Assembly (NCBI GenBank): GCA_038747755.1
Contig: JBCDJM010000029.1
Span: 1 to 42,220, forward strand
Reading direction: 5' to 3'
DNA: 42,220 bases
DNA from: Cyanobacteria bacterium P01_H01_bin.35
Lineage (GTDB): Bacteria; Cyanobacteriota; Cyanobacteriia; Cyanobacteriales; Microcoleaceae
A model generated the notes under the pieces. It was not told the DNA's origin and made no database searches. It was given only the letters and a program-made list of their open reading frames with translations. Numbering within the stretch: position 1 is the stretch's first letter; each line of letters begins with the position of its first letter. Shown piece after piece: positions 2,582-33,917 of the stretch. The translations under genes and the position numbers were made by a program.

Positions 2582-2715
2582 CAGGGCTATTTCGTTCTAA
2601 TTTATGACTTTTTGTGCATTAACGAAAATATACCTTTTCAAGAATTTAAGTTTATATCAACCAATCTCTAAAAGCTAGTAAAATTGTCACTTTATTCTAG
2701 AATTAAATAGCCCTG
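2582..2715. repeat. Inverted repeat (~18-20 bp arms, ~92 bp spacer) upstream of the second TPR-sulfotransferase gene
   Basis: Left arm is cagggctatttcgttctaat (2582-2601). The reverse complement of the right arm 2694-2715 is cagggctatttaattctagaat, giving 16 of 18 matches. Confidence 0.5.
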
Positions 2716-2833
2716 GTAGATATATCTCAGAAACTAATAGCTGATACGCGATGTGCTGAATGCTTACTTAATTATTAATTATTTGGTAATGATATAATTA
2801 TCAGTAAGGCGATCGGGAGTAACAGTAAAATTA

Positions 2834-11481: not shown

Positions 11482-12648
11482 ATGAGAATTAAACAAATTT
11501 CTGTTAATGGCTTATTTGGAATTTTTGACCATGTAATTCCCTTGAAAAGGGATGAGAGAATTACTGTTATTCATAGTCTAAATGGTTTTGGAAAAACAGC
11601 AATCTTGAGAATTTTGAATGGCTTTTTTAATTCTGAATACTCACAGTTTAAAAAGATCCCATTTAAAAACTTTAAAGTTGAATTAGATAATGATCAAATT
11701 ATAGATTTTAAATACTCACAAAAGGCAGGAAATATTGACATATCATATAATATCTTAACATCAGACAAACTTTTCTCTATCACAATCCCAATGGTTGTTT
11801 CAAACCAAGAACCTGAATGGTTGAAAAAGTTGCAAAATTCTATTCGTATTCGTTTAATTGAATCACAACGCTTAAATTTTTTTCCTAATCTTTCTTCTAC
11901 AGGATACCCTAGAAATGCTTCAATGCAGTCTACTGTTTCAGCCTACTCTAATGCACTTGCTAAACTTATGCAGGATAAAATTAAGGAATATGGGACAACA
12001 TCTCAATCTCTTGATAGAACATTTCCATTAAGAGTCGTCAAACGGCAGCCATTAGCAGATGTAACAAATGAACAACTACGTCAACAATTAGATAAGGTTG
12101 AATCAACTCGTTCTAGCCTTATAGAAATAGGGTTTTTAGATAAAGATGAAGGCTCAGAATCTCAAATTCAGCCCCAAGATATAGATGAAAGTGATGAAAG
12201 CACGAAAAAAGCTTTATCACTATATATTAAGGATGTAGAGCAAAAGCTAAATGTATTTGCCAAAACCGCAAAAAGAATCCATCTGCTCAGGAAAATTATA
12301 AATAAAAAATTTGCTTCTTCTTACAAGGAAATAAATTTTAGTAAAGAAAAGGGATTTGTATTCACAACACTCCATAAACAAAAAATTTCGCCTAGGGATC
12401 TTTCATCCGGCGAACAGCATGAATTAGTTCTCTTATTTGGATTGCTATTTAAAGCTAAACCTAACTCATTAGTTTTAATTGATGAGCCTGAACTTTCTCT
12501 TCATGTAGCATGGCAGGTTGAATTTTTAAAAGATTTAAAGGAAATAACAGAACTTGCAGATTTAGATATTTTGATGGCTACTCACTCGCCCGATATTATT
12601 CAGGAACGTTGGGATTTAACAGTTGAATTGAAGGGACTAGATAAGTGA
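11482..12648 (+). CDS. ABC/SMC-type ATPase (AAA_15/AAA_21-like), PARIS AriA-like
   Basis: Walker A is SLNGFGKTAIL and a Q-loop-like ESQR is present. A ~200-aa helical insert follows. The ABC signature is LSSGEQHEL, Walker B is LVLIDEPELSLH, and the H-loop is MATHSPD. The stop overlaps the next gene start (GTGA at 12645-12648). Confidence 0.7.
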   Translation: MRIKQISVNGLFGIFDHVIPLKRDERITVIHSLNGFGKTAILRILNGFFNSEYSQFKKIPFKNFKVELDNDQIIDFKYSQKAGNIDISYNILTSDKLFSITIPMVVSNQEPEWLKKLQNSIRIRLIESQRLNFFPNLSSTGYPRNASMQSTVSAYSNALAKLMQDKIKEYGTTSQSLDRTFPLRVVKRQPLADVTNEQLRQQLDKVESTRSSLIEIGFLDKDEGSESQIQPQDIDESDESTKKALSLYIKDVEQKLNVFAKTAKRIHLLRKIINKKFASSYKEINFSKEKGFVFTTLHKQKISPRDLSSGEQHELVLLFGLLFKAKPNSLVLIDEPELSLHVAWQVEFLKDLKEITELADLDILMATHSPDIIQERWDLTVELKGLDK

Positions 12649-13538
12649 AAAACTTCAGAGATTTGCGTTCACTTGATGCTGATGCTATTAAAGTTCGTTT
12701 ACTGCGAGATGTCTACAAAAGTCAAACACTTTTATTAGTAGAAGGTAGTTCAGACAAAACTTTTTATCAACGTTTTGTGGAAGAATCAAAATGCGAGTTA
12801 GTTATTATTTCAGGAAATCCTTCTAGTAAAGAACGTGTTATTTCTGTTCTCAAAATATTAGAAAAATCAAACTTTCAGGGTATTGTGGCAATTGTTGATG
12901 CTGACTTCGATCGCCTCACTCCTCCAACAGATCAAAAAAGTGCCAACTTACTTTACACTGACAGCCACGATCTGGAGACAATGCTCATTAATTCTCCTGC
13001 TTTCGATAAGGTAATTTCTGAGTTTGGTTCCGAAGAGAAAATATCTCAATTTAAGAAAGATATAAAGCCAGATATCAGGTTAGTAATACTTGAAAGTGCT
13101 GTGCCCATAGGTTACTTGCGTTGGATATCTCTTGACGATAGACTAGATTTAACTTTCGAGAACATTACATTTAGCAAATTTATTGATGAAAAGACTTTGA
13201 GGATAAATAAGCTCAAATTTATTGGTGAAGTCAAGAAAAAATCTCAAGCTTTTTCATTAAAAGAGGAAGATTTGCAACAGCAATTTATCGACAAAAAAAA
13301 TGGCGATCGCGATCCTTGGCAAATTTGTTGTGGCCACGATCTAGTAGAAATTTTATCCCTTGGTTTACGAAAAACTATTGGCTCTAACAAAGCTACTGAT
13401 GTTGAAGCTATTAGTCTTGAGCGTAACTTGCGTCTTGCCTATGAAGCAGTTTACTTTCAGGGAACACAACTCTACTCCCATATTCGCACATGGGAAAACA
13501 ATAATAAACCGTTCAAACTTTTGCCGAGTGAGACTTGA
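12645..13538 (+). CDS. DUF4435/TOPRIM-like protein, PARIS AriB-like effector
   Basis: LLLVEGSSDKTFYQRF (TOPRIM Glu) and IVAIVDADFDRL (DxD) form the pattern I recall for DUF4435. The GTG start overlaps the ATPase stop, indicating translational coupling. Confidence 0.65.
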   Translation: MKNFRDLRSLDADAIKVRLLRDVYKSQTLLLVEGSSDKTFYQRFVEESKCELVIISGNPSSKERVISVLKILEKSNFQGIVAIVDADFDRLTPPTDQKSANLLYTDSHDLETMLINSPAFDKVISEFGSEEKISQFKKDIKPDIRLVILESAVPIGYLRWISLDDRLDLTFENITFSKFIDEKTLRINKLKFIGEVKKKSQAFSLKEEDLQQQFIDKKNGDRDPWQICCGHDLVEILSLGLRKTIGSNKATDVEAISLERNLRLAYEAVYFQGTQLYSHIRTWENNNKPFKLLPSET

Positions 13539-13659
13539 TATAGCGTGATGCAGATAGGAAAGCTGTCAGATTAGCAACGTACAGAATTTTTTGAATTTTG
13601 ATTTTTGACTTTTGGATATTAACATAGTATTGACAAAACTAAAAAATTCAATATTATAA

Positions 13660-13679
13660 TAGAATGAATATTCAATCTA
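13660..13679. promoter_or_regulatory. Candidate TetR operator (near-palindrome) overlapping the tetR start codon
   Basis: tagaatgaatattcaatcta is the same 20-mer as 14254-14273 with one mismatch. The ATG of the TetR ORF (13664) lies inside it. Confidence 0.6.
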
Positions 13680-14239
13680 AAGACAAAAAGCAGCGCATTT
13701 TGGATGCCACGATGGAGCTGATCGCTGAGAACGGCCTCCATGCTACTCCTATGTCTCAGATTAGCAAACGTTCTCAAGTGTCTGCTGGGGCTATATACAA
13801 TTACTTTTCCAGCAAAGAAGCCCTGATTAATCATCTGTATCTCAATGTAAAAAAAGAGATATTTGATTTGGCTTTTCGTGGTTATGACATCCAGAATCCC
13901 TATAAAGAGAGGTTTCTCCTAATATGGCGAAATGTCTTTAACTACCTCATATTAAAACCAATGCAGCTATCATTCTTTGAGCAATGTTCTACTTCTCCCC
14001 TTATATCTGACGAGGCTAGAGAGATAGGCAACAAATACTTGGCTCCTTTAGCTGGATTTGTTACAGAAGGGATTGAGTCTGGTTATCTCAAGAAAATGGA
14101 TATTCAGCTTATTCTTTCTCTTATATATGGGACAGTAGTTAGTGTAGCCAAGCTCCAGTTGTCAGGAAGACTAGAAATTACTGACGAACAAAGGGAGATA
14201 GCAGCCCAATTTTGTTGGGATGGATTGAAAGCTGAATAA
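13664..14239 (+). CDS. TetR/AcrR family transcriptional regulator
   Basis: The N-terminal HTH KKQRILDATMELIAENGLHATPMSQISKRSQVSAGAIYNYFSSKEALI is canonical for TetR_N. Length is 191 aa. Confidence 0.9.
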   Translation: MNIQSKDKKQRILDATMELIAENGLHATPMSQISKRSQVSAGAIYNYFSSKEALINHLYLNVKKEIFDLAFRGYDIQNPYKERFLLIWRNVFNYLILKPMQLSFFEQCSTSPLISDEAREIGNKYLAPLAGFVTEGIESGYLKKMDIQLILSLIYGTVVSVAKLQLSGRLEITDEQREIAAQFCWDGLKAE

Positions 14240-14253
14240 TTTTTTTTTTCTGC

Positions 14254-14273
14254 TAGAATGAATATTCATTCTA
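14254..14273. promoter_or_regulatory. Candidate TetR operator, perfect 20-bp palindrome upstream of the SDR gene
   Basis: tagaatgaat|attcattcta is perfectly self-complementary. It lies 26 nt upstream of ATG 14299. Confidence 0.6.
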
Positions 14274-14298
14274 AAAATTTTATTTTGAGGAAACAAAA

Positions 14299-15123
14299 AT
14301 GGGCCAGAAAACAGTTCTCATCACTGGAGCATCATCAGGAATTGGTAAAGAAACTGCCAAAAAGTTAATTGCAGAAGGCTACACCGTTTATACAGCAGCT
14401 AGACGTGTCGAAAAAATGGAAGATATCAGGACATTGGGGGGTATTCCCATCAAGATGGATATCACGAAAGACAATGAAGTAGTCGCGACAGTTGAGCAAA
14501 TTGAGCAGAGCCATGGTGGCGTCGATATTCTCATTAATAATGCTGGTTTTGGCAATTACGGCTCTGTAGAAGAGACTACCATAAATGATGCGCGTTATCA
14601 GTTTGAGGTCAATTTATTCGGATTAGCTCGTCTAACTCAGTTGGTGCTGCCTTATATGCGCGAGCAGAAAGCAGGCAAGATCGTTAATATTTCTTCCATA
14701 GCAGGCCAACTATATGTCCCATTGGGTGCATGGTATATAGGGAGTAAACACGCCCTCGAAGGTTGGAGTGATTGTTTACGCTTTGAAACGAAGGCTTTCA
14801 ATATTGATATCATTATTATTGAGCCGGGAATTATTGCAACGGAGTTTGGTGATGTCTATGTCGAACCAATGCTCAAGCGCTCTGGTGATGGGCCATACAG
14901 GGAGCTAGCTAATTTGCTCGCCAAATTCTCCAGCAATTCAAAGACAAATCCTAATGATATGTCACCTCCCTCAGTAATAGCAAATACAATTTCTAAAGCA
15001 ATTAAGGCTCGTCATCCCAAAACGCGCTATGTGGCTGGAAAGTTAGCAAAACCTCTACTTTTAGTTCGGAAATGGGGAGGCGATCGCTTTTATGATTGGG
15101 TCTTGGGAAAAATAATTAGTTAA
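14299..15123 (+). CDS. Short-chain dehydrogenase/reductase (classical SDR)
   Basis: TGASSGIGKETAKKL (TGxxxGxG), NNAG, and the catalytic S...YIGSKHAL (YxxxK). Length is 274 aa. Confidence 0.9.
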   Translation: MGQKTVLITGASSGIGKETAKKLIAEGYTVYTAARRVEKMEDIRTLGGIPIKMDITKDNEVVATVEQIEQSHGGVDILINNAGFGNYGSVEETTINDARYQFEVNLFGLARLTQLVLPYMREQKAGKIVNISSIAGQLYVPLGAWYIGSKHALEGWSDCLRFETKAFNIDIIIIEPGIIATEFGDVYVEPMLKRSGDGPYRELANLLAKFSSNSKTNPNDMSPPSVIANTISKAIKARHPKTRYVAGKLAKPLLLVRKWGGDRFYDWVLGKIIS

Positions 15124-15395: not shown

Positions 15396-16863
15396 TCCTT
15401 TCCCTTATCAAAAAATTAAAGTTACTAAATCCCTGGTTTTATGAACAAGGTTTGGAACTTTGTCTTGTCACGTGCAAGATGTGAGTATACCGTTCTACTA
15501 AACTTACCCAAACTTACCCATGAATGATTGCACGAGCTTTGGAGTTAGCTTCCTGTTTCACAGAAGATCACTGACCGCAGTCTGTAACTTATCTTCTCCA
15601 CAGGCTTCAAATCGCTTGGAACTCAAGCTACTTATTCACATAGTTTTCTAAGTTGACAGCAGCATTAAAATCTCTGTCAGCAGTGAAACCACATTCACTA
15701 CATTTATAAGTTCTCACATTCAACGGCATTTTCTGTTGATGCCCACAGTTTGAACATATTTGAGAACTTGGATAAAATCTATCAGCTATGACTAATTCAC
15801 TGCCGTACCACTCACACTTGTATGTCAGTTGACGCTTAAATTCATAAAAACCACAATCTGCTATAGCACTTGCCAATTTATGGTTTTTGAGCATTCCACT
15901 TACGTTCAAATCTTCTATAACTATGGTGCTGTGGTTTTTAGCTAACCATGTTGTGAGTTGATGAAGTGTGTCTGCTCTGATATCTGCTACTTTTTTATGA
16001 AGTATGGCCAGTCTTTTTACGGCTTTAGCTCTGTTTTTTGAGCCTGGCTCTTTTTTGTTGACACGGCGTTGATAGCTCCTTAGTCGTTTTTTAGCTTGCT
16101 GATAGGCTTTACGGTTGGCAAAGGGTGTGCCATCGCTACAAGTTGCCAGAGTATTTATGCCTACATCTACACCGATAACATCTCGTTTGCTTGGTGCGCT
16201 ACCAAGTGCGACTGTCGTCGTCGCGGGGTCGCATCCGCGTTTGGCAGTATGGGTTGGTTCATCATCATATTTAAAGCTAATGTACCAATTATTTGCACGT
16301 TTAGATATTCTCACATTTTTGACTGGTACAGATGGTAATATTTCATAAGTTTTTACTATTCCTATTCTGGGTAATTTGATATAATTTCCTTGCATAATCT
16401 TAATACTGCCTTCTAAATAGAAACTATCTTTTCTACCCTTTTTCTTAAACTTAGGAAAACCACGTCCCCGAATAGTTAAAAAGTTTTTAAACGCCCTTTC
16501 TAAATCTCTTAATGCTTGTTGTGGGGCACACTTTGATACTTCATAGTACCAAGGATTAATTGTTTTAACTTCAGCTACTAAACGTTTATGCAAAGTAATT
16601 GCACTAGGGCGTTTTTTTGTTGATTCATATTCACAAATACAAGTAGCTAATCCCCAGTTATAAGCATGACGGGCTACACCTGCGTGCTTGGCAAGTAATG
16701 TTTTTTGTTTGTTGTTAAGTTTTAACTTAGTCTTTATTGATTGCACAATGGGTACTATACCTCCAATAAATCTATGACATTGATTCTATTATATGACAGA
16801 TGCTGTCTAGTTATGTACAATCTTGTCCAATTATTTGACTTCAGTAGTTAGCCCCATATTAAA
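15396..16863 (-). mobile_element. TnpB-only IS200/IS605-family (IS1341-like) element, approximate boundaries
   Basis: It contains tnpB only, with no tnpA. It is bracketed by an identical direct 15-mer cggatttgatattac (15381-15395 and 16864-16878). There are ~117 nt upstream and ~232 nt downstream of tnpB, sizes compatible with LE and with an RE/omega-RNA region. Confidence 0.55.
15628..16746 (-). CDS. tnpB: TnpB (OrfB) RNA-guided endonuclease-type transposase accessory protein
   Basis: 372 aa with a GTG start. RuvC-I is IGVDVGINTLA, RuvC-II is IVIEDLNVSGM, the zinc ribbon is CSNCGH...YKCSECG, and RuvC-III is ADRDFNAAVNL. Confidence 0.9.
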   Translation of the reverse strand: MQSIKTKLKLNNKQKTLLAKHAGVARHAYNWGLATCICEYESTKKRPSAITLHKRLVAEVKTINPWYYEVSKCAPQQALRDLERAFKNFLTIRGRGFPKFKKKGRKDSFYLEGSIKIMQGNYIKLPRIGIVKTYEILPSVPVKNVRISKRANNWYISFKYDDEPTHTAKRGCDPATTTVALGSAPSKRDVIGVDVGINTLATCSDGTPFANRKAYQQAKKRLRSYQRRVNKKEPGSKNRAKAVKRLAILHKKVADIRADTLHQLTTWLAKNHSTIVIEDLNVSGMLKNHKLASAIADCGFYEFKRQLTYKCEWYGSELVIADRFYPSSQICSNCGHQQKMPLNVRTYKCSECGFTADRDFNAAVNLENYVNK

Positions 16864-16874
16864 CGGATTTGATA

Positions 16875-19800
16875 TTACCCCGTGATACTTTTACGGAGCA
16901 AAGTTGAGAGTTTACTGAGTTTTTGCTCATCTAACTTAGCTAAAGGAAAATCATCAGGAGTATAATCCTCGGCCTCAGAGGAAAGGCAATGTTCAATGAG
17001 CGATCGCAAGTTTCCTAGAAAATCCTTCGCCATCTGTTGTATAGTAGTTTCTTGATGTAAATTCCGACTATAACGCCAATCAATTCTCAGTTGTTCCTGG
17101 ATAACGAAAGCATTGATTTCTAGGATGTACTGTCGTTGCTCCCTGGGGCTACGAGACAAGGTAAGTTCGCGGGTAAAGACAAAGGGGGAATCTTCTGGTA
17201 GCAGTTGCTCCATGCGCCCTAAATAATTGAATAGAATCTCCGATCGTGGTATTGATTCAAGTCTTTGGATAAGAGCTGCATCTGGACTGAGGTAGCGTAA
17301 CATCCCGTAGCCAATTCCTCGATTGGGAATATTACGCAGTTGCTCTTTGACAGACTTGAGGGCAGATTCTATATCGGAGACATCTTCTACTGTTAAGGTG
17401 ACGGGAAAAACAGAGGTAAACCAGCCGACAGTACGAGTTAAATTAGCCTCATTGACCATATTTTCCTCTCGCCCATGGCCTTCTAAGTCTACCTGAAGCG
17501 ATCGCTGTTGGGTATTTTGAGGAAAGGAGAGAATTAGGGCAGTTAATAATATCTCATTAATTTGAGTATGATAGGCGGTGGGAACTTCTTGTAAAAGTGC
17601 TTGGGTTTCTTTCTTACTCAGAGAGACAGAAAAATTATTAGCAGATGCTTCTGTATTTTCGCCATGGCGATCGTCTAAAGGAATCTGAGAATGGCTCAAA
17701 GAAGACTGCTTTAGCCAATAATCGACTTCCGATTGCAAGTTCCCTGACTGTACAGATTCAACTAGCTTTTCTGACCAACGTTTAAATGAAGTTGTCTTCA
17801 GGGGAAGTTGGATGGTCTTACCATCCATGAGTTGTTGACAAAGAGTTTGTAAATCTTGCAATAAAATTACCCAGGATACTCCATCAACAGCAAGATGGTG
17901 GATAATAATTAGTAAACGGTTGGATCGATTAACTCCTAGATTAAAAAAGGCAATCCTAATTAATTCTCCCTGAGAGAGGTTAAGACTTGTCTGCAACTCC
18001 TCTTCTATTGCGGTCATGGCAATATCTTGTTCTGATGCTTTTTTTTCTGATAGATCGACCAACTTCACCTCTACAGGAGACACAGAAGCAGAGTTAAACT
18101 GTTGCCAAGCAGATGACTCTTGAATAAAACGCAACCGCAGAGCATCATGGTGGATGAGTAGCTGTTGTATTGCTTTTTCCAACAAAGCAGAATCTAAATT
18201 TTCTGATATCTCTAGCAGCAGAGTTTGGTTATAGTGATGAGGGTCTCGAAGATTTTGTGTGAAGAAGGAATGTTGGATAGGAGTCAGGGGAATAGACCCT
18301 GTAACAATTCCTTGTTCTGATAGTATATTTGATGAAGTATTAACCTGATGGCTCAATCTCGCAATAGTGGGATGTTGAAACAGTTGATTTGGACTCAAAT
18401 ACAATCCCGCCTCGTTAGCTTTAGCTGCGATCTGAATAGCCATAATTGAATCGCCACCCAGGTCGAAGAAATTATCGTGGATACCTACTCGATCCACTTT
18501 TAGCACTGCTATCCACAATTGAGCTAAGGTCTTTTCAACTGGGGTACTCGGTGCAATAAAAGCTGTTTTTAGTTCTGGTCGAATATTTTCTGGATGAGGT
18601 AAAGCTTGGCGATCGAGTTTGCCATTACTGGTAAGGGGAATTTTGTCAAGCGGCACAAAGTAAGCAGGAATAGTATTCTGGGGAAGTTTTTGTGCGAGAT
18701 AAATTCTTAAATCTGAGGGAGTAAAATTGGTTGTACTAACATAATAAGCAACCAGACGATTTTCCATTTCTTCAGTATCAGTATACCCAATTTCCCCCAG
18801 AATTTGCTGTACATTCTCAACATTTATTTCATCATTAAGTTCTTCTAAAGCTGCATCTCTTTCTTTATGACCTAAACGCACATCCCAACTGTAGGGCAAA
18901 GCATAATTATGATAACCTTGCTTTTGAGTATGGATATGAATGCCGACGTTATTAATTAAACAGTTGGTGGAACGCCCTGTATCTGAAGGTCTAATCCAGG
19001 GGGCTTTTTCTTTGAGGAAGGTTAACATTTCATCAAGTTCCACATCACAGTAGCGATAGAAATCAATAATCTGAACTTTATCAAAGATGCTATCATCCTG
19101 AAATGCAGCAACATCTAATTCTCTAAATATAGCGTCGTCTACCTGATGATAAGCTTTTCTGGCTGCTAAAACCATTTCGTCAATTTGGTCAATATCAATG
19201 TTAGATTTTGTAAATAATTCTTCAGTTAGTCGCGTCTCAAAAAATTGCCCTCTAGATAACCCGGTAACAATTATCGGAATCCCTTTTTCATCGGCAAGTT
19301 TCATGCTGAGAGTATAGATAGTTTTAAAACAACCGTTACAAACATTGCAATGACGTTTGAGACTATCGACAAAAATAGCATTCATAGCTGGAGTAGTACC
19401 AAAAATATGTTCCACACCTAAAGAGTCAACCACTCGCCGAATATTACCTTTTGCTTGTTCAGAAATGTAGCCATTGTCTAGAGTAAAGGCTAATACCTTC
19501 AATCCCATTTCGACCAATTGATAGAGAACGTATGTACTATCTTTCCCCCCGCTGAGTAACATTAAGCAGTCATATTCTCCTTGTTTTTTAGTCTTTGCTT
19601 GCTCAAATATAGCTTGTAAATCTTGACGAGTTTTAAAATATTTCTGAGCTTTCTGCTTATAGGTTTCATAGCTGCGACAAATGTTACAAACTCCTGCTGA
19701 ATCAAAGGTAATACCGGGATAATTAGATGATATACCGCATTTTGTACAATAATGTAAGGGTGCTTGAATTTCTAATTGGGGATTTTTGCGACTCACATCT

Positions 19801-22517
19801 ACCACACAATCAGATATCATGGGATGAGAAGATAAAGCTGTTTCCACTTCCCCTAATTCAATTCTAGTACCGCGAATTTTTACCTGGCGATCGCCCCTAC
19901 CTAAATATTGCAATTGACCATTCTCTTGCCAACGACCTAAATCTCCTGTCTTGTAAATTCGTTCTCCAGGATGGAAGGGATTGGGAATAAAACGTTCTTG
20001 AGTCAGCTCCTGTCGGTTGAGATAACCTCTAGCTAAACCAGGACTAGCAATATAAATTTCTCCCACAACTCCTTGAGGAACGAGATTGAGATAATTATCC
20101 AACAAATAAATGCGAGATTGAGCTGTGGGTTTGCCAATGGGAACTGAAGTTTCTTTGTCTTCTTGCGGGTCGAAGCGATAAATCATGCAACCAACCGTTG
20201 CCTCAGTTGGACCGTATTCATTGTAAATTTCAATCTCTCCGTTAAAAGCATCTGTGACTGTTTTTGCCAAAGATGTCTTTAAGTCTTCTCCTCCCAGGAT
20301 CATTTTTTTGATGCGAGACTTACTCAAATCCATATCTTTAATAATAGACAAATGGGAAGGAGTAAGTTTAATAATATCCACAGCATTCTCTTCAACAATG
20401 CGTTGAATAGATAGATCGATTTCTCCTACATTTTCTCCATAAATTACTACTCTTCCCCCACTTAAAAGTGGCACAAAAATAGAAGTCACTGTTAAATCAA
20501 AAGAAAGAGGAGAAAAAAGAGGAAATGCTATTTCAGAGTTTTTATTATTCTGGTTTGGTAAATATTGTTGCTGTGCCCAAGATACATAATTAATTAATCC
20601 CTGATGTTCGATCATTACCCCTTTTGGTTGACCCGTGGAACCGGAAGTATAGATGATATAAGCTAAATGTTCTGGTTTGACATTACTCTCAAGATTTTCT
20701 GAGGATTGATCGCTAATTTTTTCCCAATCCCGATCCAGTTGCACAATCTCAAAACTCCTGTCAGAGGGCAACTCTTTCACTAAAGCTTCCTCTGTAAACA
20801 ATATGGGAACTTGGGTATCTTCTAGAATAAAAGCAATTCTCTCAGAAGGATAATTTGGTTCAATTGGCACATACGCACCTCCAGCTTTCAGAATACCCCA
20901 AATAGCAATTAACGTTTGGAGCGATCGCCTCATCAAAATTCCCACGGGAACTTCTGCGCCTACCCCTTGCTTTTTCAGATAGTGCGCTAGTTTATTAACT
21001 TGTTCATTAAAATTCCGATAAGTAACCTGCTTTTCTTCACCAATAATTGTTGATGTCTGTAAGGCTATCGCTTCAGGATTACTTTCAACCTGCGCTTCAA
21101 ATTTCTGAACAACAGTTTGCTTAAAGTCATCGCTCAAAATGGGAGGAGATATTTGTTCCTCTAAAAGATATTTTCTCTCTGCTTCTCCCACAATATTTAC
21201 CCGATCTATTGCTTGATTTCTATCTTCAATAAATCCTTTGAGCAGACTGATAAAATGGGCGATCGCTCGATGTTGTAACTTTTCGTCAAACAGGTCAGTA
21301 TTAAAATCAAAATGTAATAAAAAGTCACCAGAAGCATCAAAATCATGTACTTGCAGTCGCAGATGATGCTGACTGTCCACATATCCTGAATGAACCCACT
21401 CCGACTGCATTGGTAGTCCGTTGAAATCTGGTAAGGAAGCATTAATATAGTTAAGCACAACATTAATCCCACGATTAATCGCAGTACCACTAGCACCTGG
21501 TTGAGCATACCGTAGGAATGCACCAGACTCTTTTTGAACTTTCTTTAATAAGGATAAAAAAGTTTCTCCCGCCTCAATTTTAATTTGGAAAGGAAAGAGT
21601 TCGATAAAAACCCCGATGGTTTCCTTAAAATTAGTAGTAGGGCGATTATGGACTGGCGTGCTAATGGCCAATGTTTCTTGACCGCCAATGCGATAAAGAT
21701 AGGCAAAAAGAACAGTTGCAAAGATATTGAAGAGGGACAGATGTAGGCTCAGGGAACGAATATCTTTCTCCGTTGCCATTGCCCTTAATTTTTGGGATAG
21801 TTTGTCTGAGCCTAAATTGTAAGATACTCTTTGAGTTCTAGAAGAGGGTTGACTGATAGATTGGCCGTAAAAAACAACAGGTTCAAGGGATTTATTTTGA
21901 TGCTGTTGCCAATAATCTATAGCTTTTTTGTAGAGAGGAGAGTTTTGAGAGTCTTTTTCATAGGCAATATATTCGGCATAAGTTGGCAGTTTGGGTGATA
22001 CTAGAGTTCCCTGAATATATTGTCCATAAAACTCACTCATATAACGATAAACCAGCATCACTGACCAAGCATCTGTCATTAAATGATGCTGGTTAAGATA
22101 CCAGACAAACTGCTTTGAGCTGACTTTAATTAAGGCTGAATCAAACAGAATCGTTTCTAGATTAAAGGGTTGTTTGCATTGCTCTTGAATCCAGTTTTGT
22201 AAAGCGACTTTAGTATCAGCTTGGGCAGTAAAATCTAGTAAAGGTAAACTGTAGGGGAGTGTGGTTAGCACTCTTTGTTGAGGAATGTCATCAACTTCCT
22301 CAATAACAGTACGCAAAGCATCACTATTATTAACTAGGGTTTGAAAAGCTTGCTGAAAAAATACCGGTTCGATTTCACCATCAATGGTAAAAACCCAAAC
22401 CATGTTATACAATGGCGTCTCTGGATTCAACTTTTGCCCTAACCATAGTAACAGTTGACTGGATGTTAGGTTCGAGCGTTGGGCAAGATCATTAATTCGT
22501 TTTGTTGGAAGTGCCAT
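16875..22517 (-). CDS. NRPS, one module: C - A (interrupted by PP-loop domain) - T - E
   Basis: C domain: SSQLLLWLGQKLNPETPLYN, HHLMTDAWS. A domain: LAYIIYTSGSTGQPKG, NEYGPTE, YKTGDLGR, GRGDRQVKIRGTRIELGEVE, then a ~338-aa insert, then LPQNTIPAYFVPL and NGKLDRQALP. T domain: FFDLGGDSIMAIQI. E domain: LTPIQHSFF, HHLAVDGVSW, EGHGRE. The C-terminal tail is COM-donor-like: YTPDDFPLAKLDEQKLSKL. Confidence 0.95.
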   Translation of the reverse strand: MALPTKRINDLAQRSNLTSSQLLLWLGQKLNPETPLYNMVWVFTIDGEIEPVFFQQAFQTLVNNSDALRTVIEEVDDIPQQRVLTTLPYSLPLLDFTAQADTKVALQNWIQEQCKQPFNLETILFDSALIKVSSKQFVWYLNQHHLMTDAWSVMLVYRYMSEFYGQYIQGTLVSPKLPTYAEYIAYEKDSQNSPLYKKAIDYWQQHQNKSLEPVVFYGQSISQPSSRTQRVSYNLGSDKLSQKLRAMATEKDIRSLSLHLSLFNIFATVLFAYLYRIGGQETLAISTPVHNRPTTNFKETIGVFIELFPFQIKIEAGETFLSLLKKVQKESGAFLRYAQPGASGTAINRGINVVLNYINASLPDFNGLPMQSEWVHSGYVDSQHHLRLQVHDFDASGDFLLHFDFNTDLFDEKLQHRAIAHFISLLKGFIEDRNQAIDRVNIVGEAERKYLLEEQISPPILSDDFKQTVVQKFEAQVESNPEAIALQTSTIIGEEKQVTYRNFNEQVNKLAHYLKKQGVGAEVPVGILMRRSLQTLIAIWGILKAGGAYVPIEPNYPSERIAFILEDTQVPILFTEEALVKELPSDRSFEIVQLDRDWEKISDQSSENLESNVKPEHLAYIIYTSGSTGQPKGVMIEHQGLINYVSWAQQQYLPNQNNKNSEIAFPLFSPLSFDLTVTSIFVPLLSGGRVVIYGENVGEIDLSIQRIVEENAVDIIKLTPSHLSIIKDMDLSKSRIKKMILGGEDLKTSLAKTVTDAFNGEIEIYNEYGPTEATVGCMIYRFDPQEDKETSVPIGKPTAQSRIYLLDNYLNLVPQGVVGEIYIASPGLARGYLNRQELTQERFIPNPFHPGERIYKTGDLGRWQENGQLQYLGRGDRQVKIRGTRIELGEVETALSSHPMISDCVVDVSRKNPQLEIQAPLHYCTKCGISSNYPGITFDSAGVCNICRSYETYKQKAQKYFKTRQDLQAIFEQAKTKKQGEYDCLMLLSGGKDSTYVLYQLVEMGLKVLAFTLDNGYISEQAKGNIRRVVDSLGVEHIFGTTPAMNAIFVDSLKRHCNVCNGCFKTIYTLSMKLADEKGIPIIVTGLSRGQFFETRLTEELFTKSNIDIDQIDEMVLAARKAYHQVDDAIFRELDVAAFQDDSIFDKVQIIDFYRYCDVELDEMLTFLKEKAPWIRPSDTGRSTNCLINNVGIHIHTQKQGYHNYALPYSWDVRLGHKERDAALEELNDEINVENVQQILGEIGYTDTEEMENRLVAYYVSTTNFTPSDLRIYLAQKLPQNTIPAYFVPLDKIPLTSNGKLDRQALPHPENIRPELKTAFIAPSTPVEKTLAQLWIAVLKVDRVGIHDNFFDLGGDSIMAIQIAAKANEAGLYLSPNQLFQHPTIARLSHQVNTSSNILSEQGIVTGSIPLTPIQHSFFTQNLRDPHHYNQTLLLEISENLDSALLEKAIQQLLIHHDALRLRFIQESSAWQQFNSASVSPVEVKLVDLSEKKASEQDIAMTAIEEELQTSLNLSQGELIRIAFFNLGVNRSNRLLIIIHHLAVDGVSWVILLQDLQTLCQQLMDGKTIQLPLKTTSFKRWSEKLVESVQSGNLQSEVDYWLKQSSLSHSQIPLDDRHGENTEASANNFSVSLSKKETQALLQEVPTAYHTQINEILLTALILSFPQNTQQRSLQVDLEGHGREENMVNEANLTRTVGWFTSVFPVTLTVEDVSDIESALKSVKEQLRNIPNRGIGYGMLRYLSPDAALIQRLESIPRSEILFNYLGRMEQLLPEDSPFVFTRELTLSRSPREQRQYILEINAFVIQEQLRIDWRYSRNLHQETTIQQMAKDFLGNLRSLIEHCLSSEAEDYTPDDFPLAKLDEQKLSKLSTLLRKSITG
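18762..19775 (-). other. PP-loop ATP-pyrophosphatase / amidotransferase-like domain embedded in the A domain (aa ~915-1252)
   Basis: YCTKCGISSNYPGITFDSAGVCNIC ... EYDCLMLLSGGKDSTYVLYQ ... HCNVCNGC. The SGGKDS codons were checked at 19536-19553 (agc ggg ggg aaa gat agt on the minus strand). Confidence 0.75.
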
Positions 22518-23077: not shown

Positions 23078-23308
23078 CTATTTATTTAGATAAGTATCAA
23101 TTGTTTTAACTGTCCGAAAATTCTCAATTGTCACATCTTCCAAAGGTACAGTAATCTCAAACTTTTCCTCAATGAAGGCAATAAGTCGCATAATACCCAT
23201 AGAATCAACCCAATCATTTCCTAGCAAATCATCCTCTGCTCCTACCTCAAACCGACTGTTGAGTAAATTTTCACTGATATATCTTTTAAGTATTTCTTGA
23301 GTTTCCAC
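23078..23308 (-). CDS. Stand-alone acyl/peptidyl carrier protein
   Basis: The phosphopantetheine site context is NDWVDSMGIMRLIAFIEEKF. I place the start at GTG 23308 (in frame, preceded by GGAGGA at 23313-23318), giving 76 aa. The longer ORF to 23416 runs into repeat family B. Confidence 0.75.
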   Translation of the reverse strand: METQEILKRYISENLLNSRFEVGAEDDLLGNDWVDSMGIMRLIAFIEEKFEITVPLEDVTIENFRTVKTIDTYLNK

Positions 23309-23321
23309 CGATCCTCCTGAT

Positions 23322-23477
23322 TGCTGAATGCTGATTACTGACTGCTTTTTTAACTTACCGAAAAATAAAGGTTTAAAGCCTCTCCTTTCAAGGAAAAAAA
23401 AATTCCTTTTAACCAATTATCTTCTTTTTAAGAAGAGGTAATTATTAATTATTAATTGTTAATTATTAATTATTGAA
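23322..23477 (-). repeat. Dispersed repeat family B, copy 2 (inverted relative to copy 1)
   Basis: The reverse complement of 23354-23477 matches 2077-2199 almost base for base. It overlaps the last codons and stop of the adenylating-enzyme gene. Confidence 0.8.
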
Positions 23478-25034
23478 AGCTTCTTTTTGTAAAGCTCGGC
23501 GGTCTATTTTTCCCGTTGTTGTTCTTGGTAATTGTTCCCTGATAGAAATTTTCAAGGGAACTCCATACTTGGGAAGATACTTCGCTGCGTAGCGAATTAA
23601 CTCATCTGCACTTACCTCCTTTTCCTCTTTTAAAGTCACAGCAGCTTCTATATGATTACCTTCATTATCGGGTACAGAAAAAGCTCCTGCTTCTTCTACC
23701 TGGGGATGGGACACAAGAACAGCCTCTATTTCATCAAGTTCTACCCGATACCCTCGTGTTTTAATTTGTCGGTCTTTGCGTCCGAGAAAACTGTAATTAC
23801 CATCTGGTTGTAATTGTACTAAATCTCCTGTTCTGAAAAACACTTCTTTGTGGTTTCCAAATACAGGACGAGAAAAAAAAGCACATTCGTTCAGATCGGG
23901 GCGTTGCCAATACCCTTGCATCATAGTCGGTGTACGAACTAGCAATTCTCCCACCTCTCCAGAAGGTACAGGTCGATCTTGCTCGTCCACTACCAATTCT
24001 TCCGCATTCTCCCAAATACAACCAATGGGAACTGACTGTTCCGGAATAGTTTCTAACTTAGGAACATGGTAATATGTACATTGATTAATCTCTGCCGGAC
24101 CATATACATTACAAAAACGTGCTTGGGGAAGTTGCTCCATTAACTCGTATAAATATTTTGGTGGAAAGGGTTCTCCTCCAAATAATACCCAACGTAAGGA
24201 AGTCAAGTCGCGAGTTGGCAGCAGACCGCGTTGGAGCAACTGGATCAGAGCAAACGGAACAGAATACCAAATGGTGAGCTTTTCTTTTTCAATGAGTTGG
24301 GAAAGACTCGCGGGTAATTTGGTATAAGCTTCCGGAATAATAACGGTTGTCGCTCCTGCCAAAGGACCAGAAAAATAGTCAAGGGTAGACATATCAAAGT
24401 GTAATGGCGAATGGTTTCCCAAGCGATCGCCATGATGAAGTCCATAGGTATGAGCAGACATTTTGGCATAGCTCAAACCACTATGGTGAGTGTGCATGAT
24501 ACCTTTTGGTTCTCCTGTAGACCCAGAAGTATACATAATATAAGCCAGGTCTTGCTCCAGTATTCTGATATTGGGAGGAGACTCTCCAGAAATTTCCCAT
24601 ACTGTTTCCCAGGCAAAAGTTCGCACAGATAATTCTGTTGAAGCGACTCCGATAATATATTCTAGCGGAGTGGGTTCAGCTAAAATTTCTGAGATGTATG
24701 AGAGTTTTTGAGGTTGGGTAATTAGACCTCGAATACCGCAATTTTGCAGAATAAATCTAATCCGGGAGGCAGGTGCTGTAGGGTCTAAGGGAACATAAGC
24801 TGCTCCTGCTTTCATAATCCCATAGATAGCAACTGCTGATTCAAGGCTTTTATTGAGATAAATCCCAATTCGGTCTCCTCGCTCTACTCCCTGAGTCCTC
24901 ACAAAATTAGCTAGACTGTTAGACTGACTTACAAGGTTGGCATAGGTCAAGCTTTTAGATTCAAACCGGAAGGCTTCCTGTTCGGGAAATTGTTCTGCTG
25001 ACCGATCTATGGCATGGGGAATAAGATAAATCAT
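23466..25034 (-). CDS. Stand-alone adenylate-forming enzyme (amino-acid adenylation / DltA-like)
   Basis: 522 aa. Motifs: YIMYTSGSTGEPKG (A3), NVYGPAE (A5), FFRTGDL (A7), GRKDRQIKTRGYRVELDEIE (A8), TTTGKIDRRAL (A10). There is no fused carrier domain; a carrier protein gene follows. Confidence 0.85.
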   Translation of the reverse strand: MIYLIPHAIDRSAEQFPEQEAFRFESKSLTYANLVSQSNSLANFVRTQGVERGDRIGIYLNKSLESAVAIYGIMKAGAAYVPLDPTAPASRIRFILQNCGIRGLITQPQKLSYISEILAEPTPLEYIIGVASTELSVRTFAWETVWEISGESPPNIRILEQDLAYIMYTSGSTGEPKGIMHTHHSGLSYAKMSAHTYGLHHGDRLGNHSPLHFDMSTLDYFSGPLAGATTVIIPEAYTKLPASLSQLIEKEKLTIWYSVPFALIQLLQRGLLPTRDLTSLRWVLFGGEPFPPKYLYELMEQLPQARFCNVYGPAEINQCTYYHVPKLETIPEQSVPIGCIWENAEELVVDEQDRPVPSGEVGELLVRTPTMMQGYWQRPDLNECAFFSRPVFGNHKEVFFRTGDLVQLQPDGNYSFLGRKDRQIKTRGYRVELDEIEAVLVSHPQVEEAGAFSVPDNEGNHIEAAVTLKEEKEVSADELIRYAAKYLPKYGVPLKISIREQLPRTTTGKIDRRALQKEAFNN

Positions 25035-25177: not shown

Positions 25178-26326
25178 TTACAGTCCTAATAAACGAGAAA
25201 TTATATTGCGTTGAATATCGGAAGTACCTGCATAAATTATACCACCAATAGCATCTCGCAACTCGCGTTCAACACCAAAATCAGTCAGATAGCCGTTACC
25301 TCCATGGATACGGACTGAATCTAAACCTGAAGCGACAAAACATTCACTCAAATAGAGCTTCAACAAAGCCGCTTCTAACATCGCAGGTTTTCCTCTATCT
25401 TTTAGCCAAGCTACTTTATAAAGAAGTAACCTCGCTGTTTCCAGTCGCAATTTCATATCAGCAACTCGGTTCGAGACTGATTGAAATTTTCCGATAGGTT
25501 GGCCATACTGTTCTCTAGATTTAGCATAAGCAATTGCTTTTTCCAACTGTTGTTCCATTGCTCCCAGTTCGCTGGCAAGATTAAAACAGCGATCGTATTC
25601 CAGGGAGTTATGGGAGAAACTAAAGCCAGCTCCTTCAGGGCCTAGTCTATTTTCTTCTGGAACAAAACAGTTTTCAAAGAAAATTTCGCCAAAAGGAGCA
25701 GTACGCAAACCCATTTTTTCTTTAACAGCACTGGTAGAAAAACCAGGGGATGACCGCTCTACAAGAAAAGTAGTTATACCCCACTTACCTAAACTAGGAT
25801 CGAGTGTGGCAAAAACGATCGCTAGATTACAAATTGGCGCACAGGTGACAAACTTTTTTCGACCATTGAGAATGTAACCCCCTTCGCACTTTTGAGCTGT
25901 TGTCTTCAGACTGTAAACATCTGAGCCTGACTGAGGTTCAGATAGAGCATGAACTCCAATCCACTCACCCTTACATAGAGGAGGAAGGTAACGCTGTTTT
26001 TGAGCGTCTGTACCAAACTGCAATAGTAAAATCTGCACTGTCCACATTTGAGCATTGAGTGCTAATGTCAGTCCATTATCTTCACAACCGTAACCTAATC
26101 CCTCCATTGCCAGAACAGCAGTCATAATATCTAATGGGGGAGAGCCACTGTAGGCTTCAGGCATACACATTCCCTGAATGCCGAATTCAGCACACTTTCG
26201 CCAATTATCTTCAGAAAACTTACCCTGGCGATCGCGTTCAATTATATCACCATTCAAGTTTTCTTGGGCAAACTGAATTACCCGTTGCTTAAAAGCTAAT
26301 TGTTCGTCTGACCAAGAAAAGTCCAT
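25178..26326 (-). CDS. Acyl-CoA dehydrogenase family flavoprotein (probable acyl/aminoacyl-carrier-protein dehydrogenase)
   Basis: 382 aa with the ACAD fold pattern (LSEPQSGSD, YGQPIGKFQ, C-terminal IYAGTSDIQRNIISR). The position of the MCAD-type catalytic Glu (YEG) is Ala here. Confidence 0.8.
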   Translation of the reverse strand: MDFSWSDEQLAFKQRVIQFAQENLNGDIIERDRQGKFSEDNWRKCAEFGIQGMCMPEAYSGSPPLDIMTAVLAMEGLGYGCEDNGLTLALNAQMWTVQILLLQFGTDAQKQRYLPPLCKGEWIGVHALSEPQSGSDVYSLKTTAQKCEGGYILNGRKKFVTCAPICNLAIVFATLDPSLGKWGITTFLVERSSPGFSTSAVKEKMGLRTAPFGEIFFENCFVPEENRLGPEGAGFSFSHNSLEYDRCFNLASELGAMEQQLEKAIAYAKSREQYGQPIGKFQSVSNRVADMKLRLETARLLLYKVAWLKDRGKPAMLEAALLKLYLSECFVASGLDSVRIHGGNGYLTDFGVERELRDAIGGIIYAGTSDIQRNIISRLLGL

Positions 26327-26374: not shown

Positions 26375-27466
26375 TTATCGCGAAACTGGAAACAATTGAG
26401 TTTGCTCTCTTTTACTTTCCACTGAAATAGAAAAATCGTAAGGATTTCTAAAATCAGCAGAAATACTTTCGAGTTGTACTAAAGTTCCTACATCTAGCTC
26501 TTGAGCATAGTCTAGAAATATATTCATTGCTACCCGATCTTCTAATGCCCATCCAGTCGAATCAAAAACTGTTTGCCGATCTTGAATATCTCTATACTGC
26601 TCTTGTTTTTGTATCAATTGATATAGTTCAAGTTTAATATCTTCAGGATTTAGTTGCTGGCATTCTCCTTCCTTTAAGGCTTGAGTGCGAAAGTCTGGAC
26701 AAACAAAACTTTTCTGAAGGAGAGATTGAGGAAGTTCTGTTTTTCCTGGAAAGTCTGAACCTACGGCGTTTATATGTATCCAAGGTTTGAGGGAATTATC
26801 TTGAAAAACAGGACCTTCTCCAATTTTGACGGAGGTTGCAGTACAGAGAATATCAGCTAAAGTAACAAGTTTCTCTAATGGAGTCACTTTGACTTCTATA
26901 TTTTTCAGGTTGAGACAGGAAACCCTTGTTTCAAAGGAGTTACTGGCTGCTGAATCTATATCATAGATTAGAACCTGCTCGAAATCAAAAATCCGAGAAA
27001 GGGCGTGCAACTGACTAACTGCCTGCGCTCCACAACCTATAAGCCCGATAATTTTGCTATTGGGTATAGCCATCAATTGACTGGCTACGGCTGATGCAGC
27101 ACCTGTTCTGAGAGCAGTAATAAAAGTAGCATCCATCAGTCCTATCAAATGTCCTGAAGTTGTATCATAGGCTGATACAGTAGAAACAATTGTTGGGAGT
27201 TTACGAGTATTTGGGTTTGTAGGATGATAGCCAACTACTTTAATAACTACTCCCTCTTTTTGAGCTAGTGACGGCATCCACTCAATCAACCCTGTATGAG
27301 GATTTTCATAGTTAAAGCCATCACGAGGAGGAATGATAGTTTTGTTGGGATCGAATGTTTGAAATGTTTTGATCAGACGAGCTATCATTTCATCCATCAA
27401 CATATCTAAGCCAACTTTCTGTACAATTTTACGGATATCATTGACTGATAAAATTAAGGTTTCCAC
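26375..27466 (-). CDS. Ornithine cyclodeaminase / mu-crystallin family protein
   Basis: 363 aa. Features are the N-terminal LSVNDIRKIV, TALRTGAASAVAS, and the Rossmann motif GLIGCGAQAVSQLHAL typical of the OCD_Mu_crystall family. Confidence 0.8.
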   Translation of the reverse strand: METLILSVNDIRKIVQKVGLDMLMDEMIARLIKTFQTFDPNKTIIPPRDGFNYENPHTGLIEWMPSLAQKEGVVIKVVGYHPTNPNTRKLPTIVSTVSAYDTTSGHLIGLMDATFITALRTGAASAVASQLMAIPNSKIIGLIGCGAQAVSQLHALSRIFDFEQVLIYDIDSAASNSFETRVSCLNLKNIEVKVTPLEKLVTLADILCTATSVKIGEGPVFQDNSLKPWIHINAVGSDFPGKTELPQSLLQKSFVCPDFRTQALKEGECQQLNPEDIKLELYQLIQKQEQYRDIQDRQTVFDSTGWALEDRVAMNIFLDYAQELDVGTLVQLESISADFRNPYDFSISVESKREQTQLFPVSR

Positions 27467-27554: not shown

Positions 27555-28880
27555 TCAAATAAATGGTAAAATTTGTTCAATAAAACCCCTAGCATTAAGA
27601 TTAATTTGAAAGGCACGTTCTACAAACCAATAAACAGCAACAATAAACAGAAAAACAGATCCTATTTTTAGTAAAAACTTTGCATATAATTTTTGTTGTC
27701 GCAGTAAATAAAGAATCGGAAAAATAACAGCAATAATCGCAATTTGCCCTAGCTCTACTCCTAAATTAAATCCAAATAAAGAGAGAAATGCACGTTCTTG
27801 AACAATACCTAATTCTGCTAATACATTCGCAAAACCAAATCCATGAAATAGTCCAAATACAAAGATTATTATCCAAATTCTTTTCCCAAAAATAGGATAA
27901 ATAATATCAACGGCAGCAACTGCAATTGAAAGGGCAATTATAGATTCAACTATGTGAGAGGGTATTTCCACAATTTTCAGCGTTGCCAAAGCTAATGTAA
28001 TACTATGGGCAACGGTAAAAGCAGTGGCAATTTTTATTACATGAAAAAAAGCAGGACGGAAATTTTTAACTGGTTGCCAACGTAAATCTTCTCTTTGCAA
28101 AACAGATGGCAAAATTAAAGCAACTAAGAATAGAATATGATCGATGCCTTCCCAAATATGAAGAACCCCAAGTTTGACTACAGCAATAAATCCTTTGAAG
28201 ACAGACACAGAGGATAAATCTAAAGTTTGTGGTTTGCTATTTTCAGTAAAAATTAAGGAAACCGAAGATTCATTAGCGAATGTACCAGCTTTCCAATTAT
28301 GCTCAATCACAACTAAGTTTTTATGTTGTGGTTTAATATCTAATAGTACCCTATAGTCAACATCAAGACTTTCAGGAACTTCTGACAAGTTATAAATTTG
28401 ATAATCAAAATCCAAAAATCTAGCAAATCCTGTTCTCCAAGATCTATATCCTGTATATTTTAAAACATATTCTTGTTGATTATTGCTAATTGTGAGATTT
28501 TTATCTATATAATCCTTAATTTTTTCGAGGTGAGGTTCTATTTCTTCCGATTTAGGCTTTCGGTTAGTTGGTAAATCTAAGTTTAAAGCTGTGTTGATAT
28601 CATCAACAGTCATTTCGACACGAGCTTCAATAGATTGGTCATAAATCTTAAAATAAAGATAACTTTGTTCGGGAGCATGAGCAATGGCGTTAGATATTGA
28701 TAAAAAGCAAAATGAAATTGCAATAGCAATATAGACAACTATAGAGCGCAGTGTCTTATTTTTAGTGATATTAGTCCAAATATTATAGTTTCTGAGACTA
28801 TTATTAATTGGTATAACTGGCAAGCAGAAGTTACTATTTTTTGCCTGTTTATGTTGTGAGAATAATTGCCTAAAGAACAT
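27555..28880 (-). CDS. HupE/UreJ-family membrane protein with N-terminal extracytoplasmic domain
   Basis: The C-terminal half carries HIWEGIDHILFLVALIL, FTVAHSITLALATL, GLFHGFGFA and GFNLGVELGQ (HupE/UreJ_2-type motifs). A signal/anchor helix lies near aa 45-65. The exact start is uncertain. Confidence 0.7.
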   Translation of the reverse strand: MFFRQLFSQHKQAKNSNFCLPVIPINNSLRNYNIWTNITKNKTLRSIVVYIAIAISFCFLSISNAIAHAPEQSYLYFKIYDQSIEARVEMTVDDINTALNLDLPTNRKPKSEEIEPHLEKIKDYIDKNLTISNNQQEYVLKYTGYRSWRTGFARFLDFDYQIYNLSEVPESLDVDYRVLLDIKPQHKNLVVIEHNWKAGTFANESSVSLIFTENSKPQTLDLSSVSVFKGFIAVVKLGVLHIWEGIDHILFLVALILPSVLQREDLRWQPVKNFRPAFFHVIKIATAFTVAHSITLALATLKIVEIPSHIVESIIALSIAVAAVDIIYPIFGKRIWIIIFVFGLFHGFGFANVLAELGIVQERAFLSLFGFNLGVELGQIAIIAVIFPILYLLRQQKLYAKFLLKIGSVFLFIVAVYWFVERAFQINLNARGFIEQILPFI

Positions 28881-32550: not shown

Positions 32551-32552
32551 AA

Positions 32553-33890: not shown

Positions 33891-33917
33891 AAAAAAGTAA
33901 TTGATTAACTTTTTATT

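Follow-up and report, generated by a model that had tools for sequence, protein, structure and literature searches.

In the genome of Cyanobacteria bacterium P01_H01_bin.35, the adenylation (A) domain of a nonribosomal peptide synthetase (NRPS) is interrupted by an insert that is, with high confidence, an AMDH ("aminomutase/amide dehydratase") domain of the type found in CysH and AlbIV, acting on asparagine (Asn) bound to the thiolation (T) domain. The NRPS is encoded on the minus strand of a stretch of 42,220 nucleotides (contig JBCDJM010000029.1, positions 1 to 42,220), hereafter the window. By homology to CysH, the assignment of the insert as AMDH is secure at the level of sequence: BLASTP against the AMDH domain of CysH, with the sequence from the Source Data of PMC7966384, aligns the two over 329 aa at 51% identity (E 5e-134). 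The architecture is the known AMDH type and not a new class of interrupted A domain. Its setting is unlike that of CysH or AlbIV: here the domain sits in an in-line module of a conserved, uncharacterized cyanobacterial cluster with a prolyl or pyrrolyl starter and a HupE/UreJ gene. The interest of the locus rests on the product of this widespread cluster family and on clues to the AMDH mechanism, not on the architecture.

Layout of the interrupted synthetase

The NRPS has the order condensation (C), A with the AMDH insert, T and epimerization (E), with the following features.

16875-22517, minus strand: NRPS gene, C-A(AMDH-interrupted)-T-E; uninterrupted open reading frame (ORF) of 1880 aa, domains from Pfam and NCBIfam
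21138-22517, minus strand: N-terminal condensation domain, about aa 1-460; Pfam Condensation in two stretches, motif HHLMTDA
19776-21101, minus strand: A-domain core and start of the C-terminal subdomain (Asub), motifs A1-A8, aa 473-914; Pfam and NCBIfam, code DLTKIGEVGK (Asn)
18762-19775, minus strand: AMDH domain, an N-acetyl sugar amidotransferase (NASAT)-like PP-loop insert, aa 915-1252; CysH BLASTP, TIGR03573, AlphaFold2, Foldseek
19677-19748, minus strand: tetracysteine CTKC...CNIC, aa 924, 927, 944 and 947, predicted structural Zn site; alignments
19536-19553, minus strand: PP-loop SGGKDS, ATP-binding motif, aa 989-994; sequence and alignment
19329-19340, minus strand: CxxC (CNGC), aa 1060 and 1063, candidate second metal site; alignments and profile match to 8cnz
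18960-18962, minus strand: Cys 1186 in GRSTNC, candidate third ligand of the second metal site; alignments
18588-18761, minus strand: A-domain remainder with A9 and A10 (Lys517 equivalent), aa 1253-1310; Pfam AMP-binding_C and sequence
18348-18530, minus strand: thiolation (peptidyl carrier protein, PCP) domain, aa 1330-1390; PF00550
16908-18299, minus strand: epimerization-type domain, aa 1407-1856; Condensation match, motif HHLAVDG, TIGR01720

The interruption is visible both in the domain matches and in the sequence. Pfam AMP-binding covers aa 473-833, NCBIfam AA-adenyl-dom aa 499-906 and AMP-binding_C aa 1247-1300, and the gap between them holds the 338 aa that separate A8 from A9. A preliminary description, made from the letters of the DNA, had placed the insert at 18762-19775, and these limits are exact. 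It had also recognized motif A8, GRGDRQVKIRG, correctly; the motif begins at aa 873 and not at aa 874, a slip of one residue. The last residue of CVVDVSRKNPQ, before the insert, is aa 914, and after the insert the A domain resumes with RLVAYYV at aa 1254, A9 LPQNTIPAYFVPL at 1278 and A10 NGKLDRQALP at 1298. The C-terminal domain scores 142.6 bits on TIGR01720, against a cutoff of 74.2.

Homology to CysH and AlbIV

The AMDH domain was characterized and named in CysH, from cystobactamid biosynthesis in Cystobacter velatus Cbv34 (Gross et al., 2021, Nat Commun; PMC7966384). CysH is loaded with L-Asn and a shift of -18 Da then gives beta-cyano-L-alanine, whereas CysH with the AMDH deleted merely loads Asn; as a second activity, AMDH isomerizes Asn to isoasparagine (isoAsn). 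Deleting the domain in the cystobactamid cluster removes all isoAsn and cyanoalanine congeners, and without the hydroxylase CysJ the output moves to cyanoalanine, with isoAsn and Asn as co-products (PMC7966384). According to the same authors, every AMDH homologue is inserted in an Asn-specific A domain, and SGGKDS is "core region 1" of the domain (PMC7966384). Their list of the 25 closest homologues includes Confluentibacter sp. 3B, Arenibacter certesii and Zobellia uliginosa (PMC7966384), and these three were recovered independently here as insert-bearing loci. As in the window NRPS, the insert of CysH interrupts an A domain specific for Asn and is followed by A9/A10 and the T domain, and it keeps SGGKD and all the cysteines that are invariant in the family (YCTKCG...GVCNHC, NVCNGCFK, GRSTNC).

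The second characterized relative is AlbIV (Alb04), from albicidin biosynthesis in Xanthomonas albilineans. In later accounts of the work, AlbIV activates Asn and the residue ends as beta-cyano-L-alanine (Cociancich et al., 2015, as reported in PMC8949500 and PMC12283262). The same accounts give it an extension of about 342 aa of the adenine-nucleotide-alpha-hydrolase type, with SGGKD and the code DLTKIGEVGK, like the window A domain. In their description, AlbIV is an A-T module that stands alone and complements an in-line A domain without activity, whereas the window module is itself in-line. The AlbIV sequence used for comparison comprises the first ~400 aa, and the direct homology of the insert was tested against CysH.

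With AlbIV and CysH in hand, the preliminary description's statement that no characterized A domain carries such an insert does not stand: both have the homologous domain, in work published in 2015 and 2021. Because the architecture maps to the characterized albicidin and cystobactamid pathways, the claim of novelty falls on that description's own terms. The insert appeared new because AMDH is missing from the reviews that were checked and has no Pfam or NCBIfam model. Reviews of interrupted A domains name methyltransferase (M), ketoreductase (KR), oxidase (Ox) and monooxygenase (MOx) inserts and have no PP-loop or AMDH class (PMC8341866, PMC11355689), which probably explains why AMDH was overlooked. 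The releases of Pfam (2025) and NCBIfam (2026) hold no model for the domain, so annotation pipelines leave it unnamed.

The window NRPS differs from CysH in several respects. Like AlbIV, CysH is a stand-alone A-T protein that feeds its assembly line in trans; the partners of its A(AMDH)-T module are CysJ, a hydroxylase, CysQ, an O-methyltransferase, and CysB, a shuttling enzyme. In the window, the module is an in-line C-A(AMDH)-T-E followed by epimerization, in an unrelated cluster with no nearby CysJ-like gene and no p-aminobenzoate. Four points weigh against reading the insert as an AMDH that modifies T-bound Asn. First, at 51% identity to CysH, the sequence cannot tell whether the outcome would be a nitrile, isoAsn or a third product. 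Second, the characterized members are all stand-alone A-T proteins with a shuttling enzyme, and by analogy the function of an in-line C-A(AMDH)-T(-E) protein is predicted. Third, the catalytic mechanism of the family is at the stage of hypothesis, with the dark-brown color of CysH pointing to a metal cofactor (PMC7966384). Fourth, part of the assembly line lies inverted on the plus strand and a transposon-type tnpB gene follows the NRPS, so that expression of the whole pathway is not assured.

Specificity and distribution

The A domain of the window NRPS is predicted to be specific for Asn from its code, DLTKIGEVGK, which is identical to that of AlbIV. The ten code positions were assigned from the positions of the motifs, with a fragment of GrsA as guide. 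A 2025 survey gives Asn as the residue for this code and names AlbIV, the beta-cyanoalanine module, as a carrier of it (PMC12283262). The stretches SFDLTVTS, KLTP(S/A)H, GGEDL and NEYGPTETVVGC are present in the AlbIV and CysH sequences. Among 72 insert-bearing A domains from many phyla, 61 have DLTKIGEVGK and another seven DLTKVGEVGK.

A search of other genomes for the same architecture, which the preliminary description had proposed, found homologues of the insert at 59-96% identity in >540 species-representative genomes. These include Cyanobacteria, Bacteroidota, Acidobacteriota, Actinomycetota, Planctomycetota, Chloroflexota, Alpha- and Gammaproteobacteria, Verrucomicrobiota and others, and most have one conserved type of cluster whose product is undescribed. 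The best match is from Dapis sp. BLCC M126 (96%), a marine filamentous cyanobacterium. In nearly all loci ~970-1000 residues precede the insert, and the protein is of the C-A-T or C-A-T-E type; the host protein in Microvirga and Mesorhizobium is an A-T protein. The homologous proteins returned by the protein search are fragments of <600 aa and were used only for the domain alignment; one such fragment was traced to an NRPS broken up by frameshifts.

Family and fold of the insert

As the preliminary description had proposed, the insert has the fold of PP-loop ATP pyrophosphatases, with NASATs as its nearest relatives. In a profile search, it matches NCBIfam TIGR03573 (WbuX, N-acetyl sugar amidotransferase) with E 3.9e-41, from position 2 to position 323 of a profile of 344. 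At 141.6 bits against a curated cutoff of 203.2, the insert falls outside the family as defined; the AMDH domain of CysH is likewise sub-threshold (151.8 bits). An AlphaFold2 model built with 20 homologues has a pLDDT of 84.7 and a pTM of 0.87. With this predicted model as query, Foldseek gives as the top match, by a wide margin, 8wex, a NASAT from Legionella (E 4e-12, TM 0.58/0.53); the next neighbors are YcfA, asparagine synthetase, TtuA and the [4Fe-4S] enzyme LarE, and NcsA is also among them.

In the Legionella enzyme (LpNASAT), a Zn-binding tetracysteine precedes SGGKDS (PMC10607449). When the insert was aligned with four annotated NASATs, all encoded on plasmids, C924, C927, C944, C947 and SGGKD were invariant, at an overall identity of 17-24%. 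The order of four cysteines and then SGGxDS, which had been likened to NASATs, is thus the arrangement found in the alignment, and the tetracysteine of the insert is predicted to correspond to that of 8wex and to form a structural Zn site. The PP-loop motif itself, reported at 19536-19553, reads SGGKDS there (aa 989-994) and is intact and invariant, so that its residues are not degenerate.

Since NASATs are the closest named family and the best structural neighbor, and since the Zn tetracysteine and PP-loop are common to both, the insert could be taken for an amidotransferase of the NASAT kind, which would draw on ATP and on ammonia or glutamine to build an amide or amidine at the loaded residue, for instance by turning the Asn carboxamide into an amidine. 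The substrate does bear a carboxamide, the group that NASATs convert to an amidine, and both enzymes use ATP on a carboxamide carbonyl. NASATs (WbuX, WbpG, LfnA) are, however, free-standing enzymes of sugar pathways that add NH3 with HisH/HisF-like partners, and the NASAT genes examined are flanked by such ammonia-delivering partners of the HisH/HisF/WbuZ type. A tblastn search of the window and of 81 AMDH loci gave no match to these partners. The sub-threshold score and the low identity also speak against a true NASAT, and the CysH domain, half identical to the insert, yields a product 18 Da lighter, with no amidine reported in cystobactamids or albicidins (PMC7966384). An amidotransferase of this kind is very improbable. 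The in-cis amidation or amidine formation of the preliminary description is accordingly not upheld, given that its CysH homologue dehydrates or isomerizes T-bound Asn, that AMDH is not known to carry out either reaction and that ammonia partner genes were not found.

QueC and other nitrile synthetases are PP-loop enzymes that take a carboxylate to an amide and on to a nitrile; the ATP-dependent step from amide to nitrile is the one proposed for the insert. The Pfam matches to the insert are solely to the PP-loop families QueC and ThiI, in the region where the PP-loop starts; that to QueC reaches 27 bits against a cutoff of 22 and covers just the N-terminal ~70 profile positions. The substrate of QueC is a free deazapurine, whereas that of AMDH is an amino acid bound to a carrier. 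None of the methyltransferase, ketoreductase, oxidase and monooxygenase classes has a Pfam match to the insert, which lies outside them as had been predicted. Classical interrupted A domains (A8-M-A9 and those with KR, Ox or MOx) share with it the A8-A9 site and the in-cis tailoring of a T-bound substrate, but differ from the PP-loop insert in fold and chemistry.

Conserved cysteines and a candidate second metal site

Beyond the tetracysteine, the insert has three further cysteines, C1060 and C1063 in NVCNGCFK and C1186 in GRSTNC, that are invariant in 20 aligned homologues. The preliminary description had pointed to HCNVCNGC as a second cluster, and the last two cysteines of this motif are indeed conserved; the position of the first is variable, with S, C, A, H, Q or K among homologues, and C1186 was missed. 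The CxxC and distant Cys are absent from three canonical NASATs in the alignment. In the profile search of PDB sequences, the insert matches the [4Fe-4S] enzyme mmLarE best (8cnz, E 3e-9), and its CxxC aligns with the CxxC of that enzyme. Purified CysH is dark brown, and Gross et al. dismissed an Fe-S cluster solely for want of the CxxxCxxC motif of radical S-adenosylmethionine enzymes (PMC7966384). From the sequence alignments, the additional triad suggests a second metal site, and a three-Cys cluster in the style of TtuA and LarE, or another second metal site, is a reasonable hypothesis for AMDH. With the domain tied to a solved fold (NASAT, 8wex), the triad offers concrete targets for mutagenesis and spectroscopy that bear on the color of CysH and on the mechanism.

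A protein annotated as a NASAT, encoded on a plasmid of Rhodobacteraceae (CP049031.1, 1459-2664), carries the invariant CxxC and distant Cys of AMDH domains at the corresponding positions. The NRPS insert may derive from a sub-clade of NASATs that this protein represents.

The same cysteines raise the question of an iron-sulfur PP-loop sulfur-insertase of the TtuA, LarE, NcsA, YcfA or CtaC type, which would turn an amide into a thioamide on the carrier-bound residue. The invariant CxxC and distant C, their alignment with mmLarE, the presence of TtuA, LarE, NcsA and YcfA among the fold neighbors and the brown color of CysH (PMC7966384) would all fit such an enzyme. CysH, however, carries out dehydration when given Asn and ATP with no sulfur donor (PMC7966384), the known products of the family are nitrile and isoAsn, and no thioamide occurs in albicidins or cystobactamids. 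A cysteine desulfurase, a ThiS/TtuB-like carrier or a rhodanese was not found among the window ORFs, and a cluster could equally act as a Lewis acid in dehydration or isomerization. Sulfur insertion is extremely unlikely. In the literature, the thioamide lead gave only work on TfuA/YcaO in peptides that are made on ribosomes and modified after translation (RiPPs), which is irrelevant here.

Conservation also bears on whether the insert is active at all. Cystobactamids with unmodified Asn linkers exist, so not every substrate molecule is processed (PMC7966384), and the insert could in principle be a catalytically dead relic or structural spacer in a module that incorporates plain Asn. Across phyla, however, the insert alignment has a mean column identity of 64% and ~80 invariant positions, and 78 of the 79 complete AMDH homologues keep all the cysteine and PP-loop motifs, as does the window insert. 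The intact NRPS ORF and invariant motifs led to rejection of a pseudogene or dead domain, the probability of which is minimal.

Proposed reaction of the module

An AMDH acting on T-bound Asn would work as follows, in an order proposed from the domain layout and the precedents. The A domain would adenylate L-Asn, the substrate indicated by its code, and load it on the T domain; Asn loading has been shown experimentally for CysH and AlbIV. Located in the A8-A9 loop, the AMDH would move with the mobile Asub, bind ATP at SGGKDS and activate the side-chain carboxamide oxygen of T-bound Asn. Adenylation is the usual mode of activation in PP-loop enzymes, QueC and NASAT among them, whereas the authors of the albicidin work proposed phosphorylation of the amide. 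By analogy, either adenylation or phosphorylation may activate the amide in AMDH. Elimination would then give beta-cyano-L-alanyl-S-T, consistent with the -18 Da shift of CysH that domain deletion abolishes; alternatively, AMDH would isomerize Asn to isoAsn.

No beta-hydroxylase of the TauD/SyrP (CysJ) type was found among the window ORFs, and the nitrile is therefore favored by the CysH precedent, with isoAsn as a co-product or alternative. By this analogy, beta-cyanoalanine is the likeliest residue and isoAsn the second. The upstream C domain would acylate the alpha-amine with a proline-derived starter. Since genes for an ornithine cyclodeaminase (OCD), a stand-alone A domain, a carrier protein and a PigA/RedW-like dehydrogenase lie upstream, the donor is probably pyrrolyl-2-carboxyl or dehydroprolyl. 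The E domain would epimerize the residue to the D configuration, and the chain would then pass to the NRPS genes on the plus strand. The cyanobacterial cluster, with that of Dapis sp. BLCC M126 as closest relative, thus likely makes a peptide with a rare beta-cyanoalanine or isoAsn residue.

The surrounding gene cluster

The genes for the starter unit lie upstream of the NRPS on the same strand, and the rest of the assembly line lies beyond them on the plus strand.

23078-23416, minus strand: stand-alone carrier protein for the starter unit; PF00550, syntenic in 44 loci
23466-25034, minus strand: stand-alone A domain for the starter unit, putatively Pro-type; domain matches and synteny
25178-26326, minus strand: prolyl-carrier-protein dehydrogenase, PigA/RedW-like; NCBIfam PigA 401.7 and RedW 344.6 bits, both below the equivalog cutoffs
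26375-27466, minus strand: ornithine cyclodeaminase family protein, putatively for proline supply; domain matches
27555-28880, minus strand: HupE/UreJ_2 and DUF6702 membrane protein, first gene of the conserved cluster; domain matches
29755-40255, plus strand: rest of the assembly line, C-Acore/glycosyltransferase/methyltransferase/sulfotransferase/Asub-T-C/C-T-thioesterase; inverted relative to related loci
15628-16746, minus strand: TnpB of the IS200/IS605 type (OrfB_IS605 and Cas12f1-like TNB), directly downstream of the AMDH NRPS

Cyanobacterial loci repeat the gene order HupE/UreJ, OCD, dehydrogenase, A, PCP and C-A(AMDH)-T(-E), and loci in other phyla do so with parts missing. A HupE/UreJ_2 gene stands beside the AMDH NRPS in 47 of 81 loci, across phyla. 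In Zobellia uliginosa, a minimal cluster consists of HupE, A, PCP, C-A(AMDH)-T, a 163-aa protein and a TonB-dependent receptor (3856-5115 and 12023-14308 of locus L042). From the HupE linkage and the TonB receptor, it is a speculation that the products are metal-related small peptides. In related cyanobacterial loci, the downstream NRPS genes are on the same strand as the AMDH NRPS, whereas in the window they are inverted and lie beyond the HupE gene; the cluster ORFs of the window are all intact. A near-identical contig of Dapis ends ~370 nt past the NRPS.

A wider scheme is possible but doubtful. AMDH would be a metal-dependent sub-clade of the NASAT fold in which the CxxC...C triad binds an Fe-S cluster or second metal for dehydration or isomerization. 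The products of the widespread clusters with an in-line C-A(AMDH)-T module, a pyrrolyl or prolyl starter, HupE/UreJ and, in some cases, a TonB receptor would be small peptides with a nitrile or isoAsn, an undescribed family and possibly metallophores; the cyanobacterial ones would be assembled with an A domain that is naturally split in trans and brackets its tailoring genes.

Within the plus-strand genes, a second A domain of the cluster is split over two proteins at the A8-A9 site (29755-37729, plus strand), with three tailoring genes in the gap.

29755-32550, plus strand: C-Acore ORF, which ends just past A8 and the first Asub strand (...EVVVVAQ and a 37-aa tail)
32553-33890, plus strand: glycosyltransferase in the A-domain gap, with its start codon 3 nt past the C-Acore stop
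33918-34673, plus strand: methyltransferase in the A-domain gap
34689-35627, plus strand: sulfotransferase in the A-domain gap
35723-37729, plus strand: Asub-T-C ORF, with a 40-aa tail, RLVAYIV..., A9, A10, PCP and C

From its sequence, the split domain looks like an "interrupted A domain in trans". The split with a glycosyltransferase between its halves recurs in six further loci (L003, L005, L006, L009, L012 and L046), and a similar arrangement is present in a locus from Chloroflexota (L019); in a gammaproteobacterial locus (L035), the corresponding module is unsplit. No description of a natural trans-split A domain was found, in a literature search on split A domains that was uninformative either way.

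Other genes in the window

Three further loci in the window touch on other functions. A PARIS-type anti-phage gene pair lies at 11482-13538 (plus strand) and consists of an AAA_15/AAA_21 ATPase and a DUF4435 protein, which match AriA (E 1.9e-26) and AriB (E 1.5e-25) of PADLOC. At 41873-42220 (minus strand), an ORF of 115 aa that starts at the last base of the window matches only positions 1-108 of the 340 in a profile for CBASS oligonucleotide cyclases (E 1.8e-33); it is probably a CD-NTase that has suffered truncation or a frameshift. At 231-5332 (plus strand), two adjacent proteins of 614 and 832 aa have many TPR repeats and a C-terminal sulfotransferase domain.

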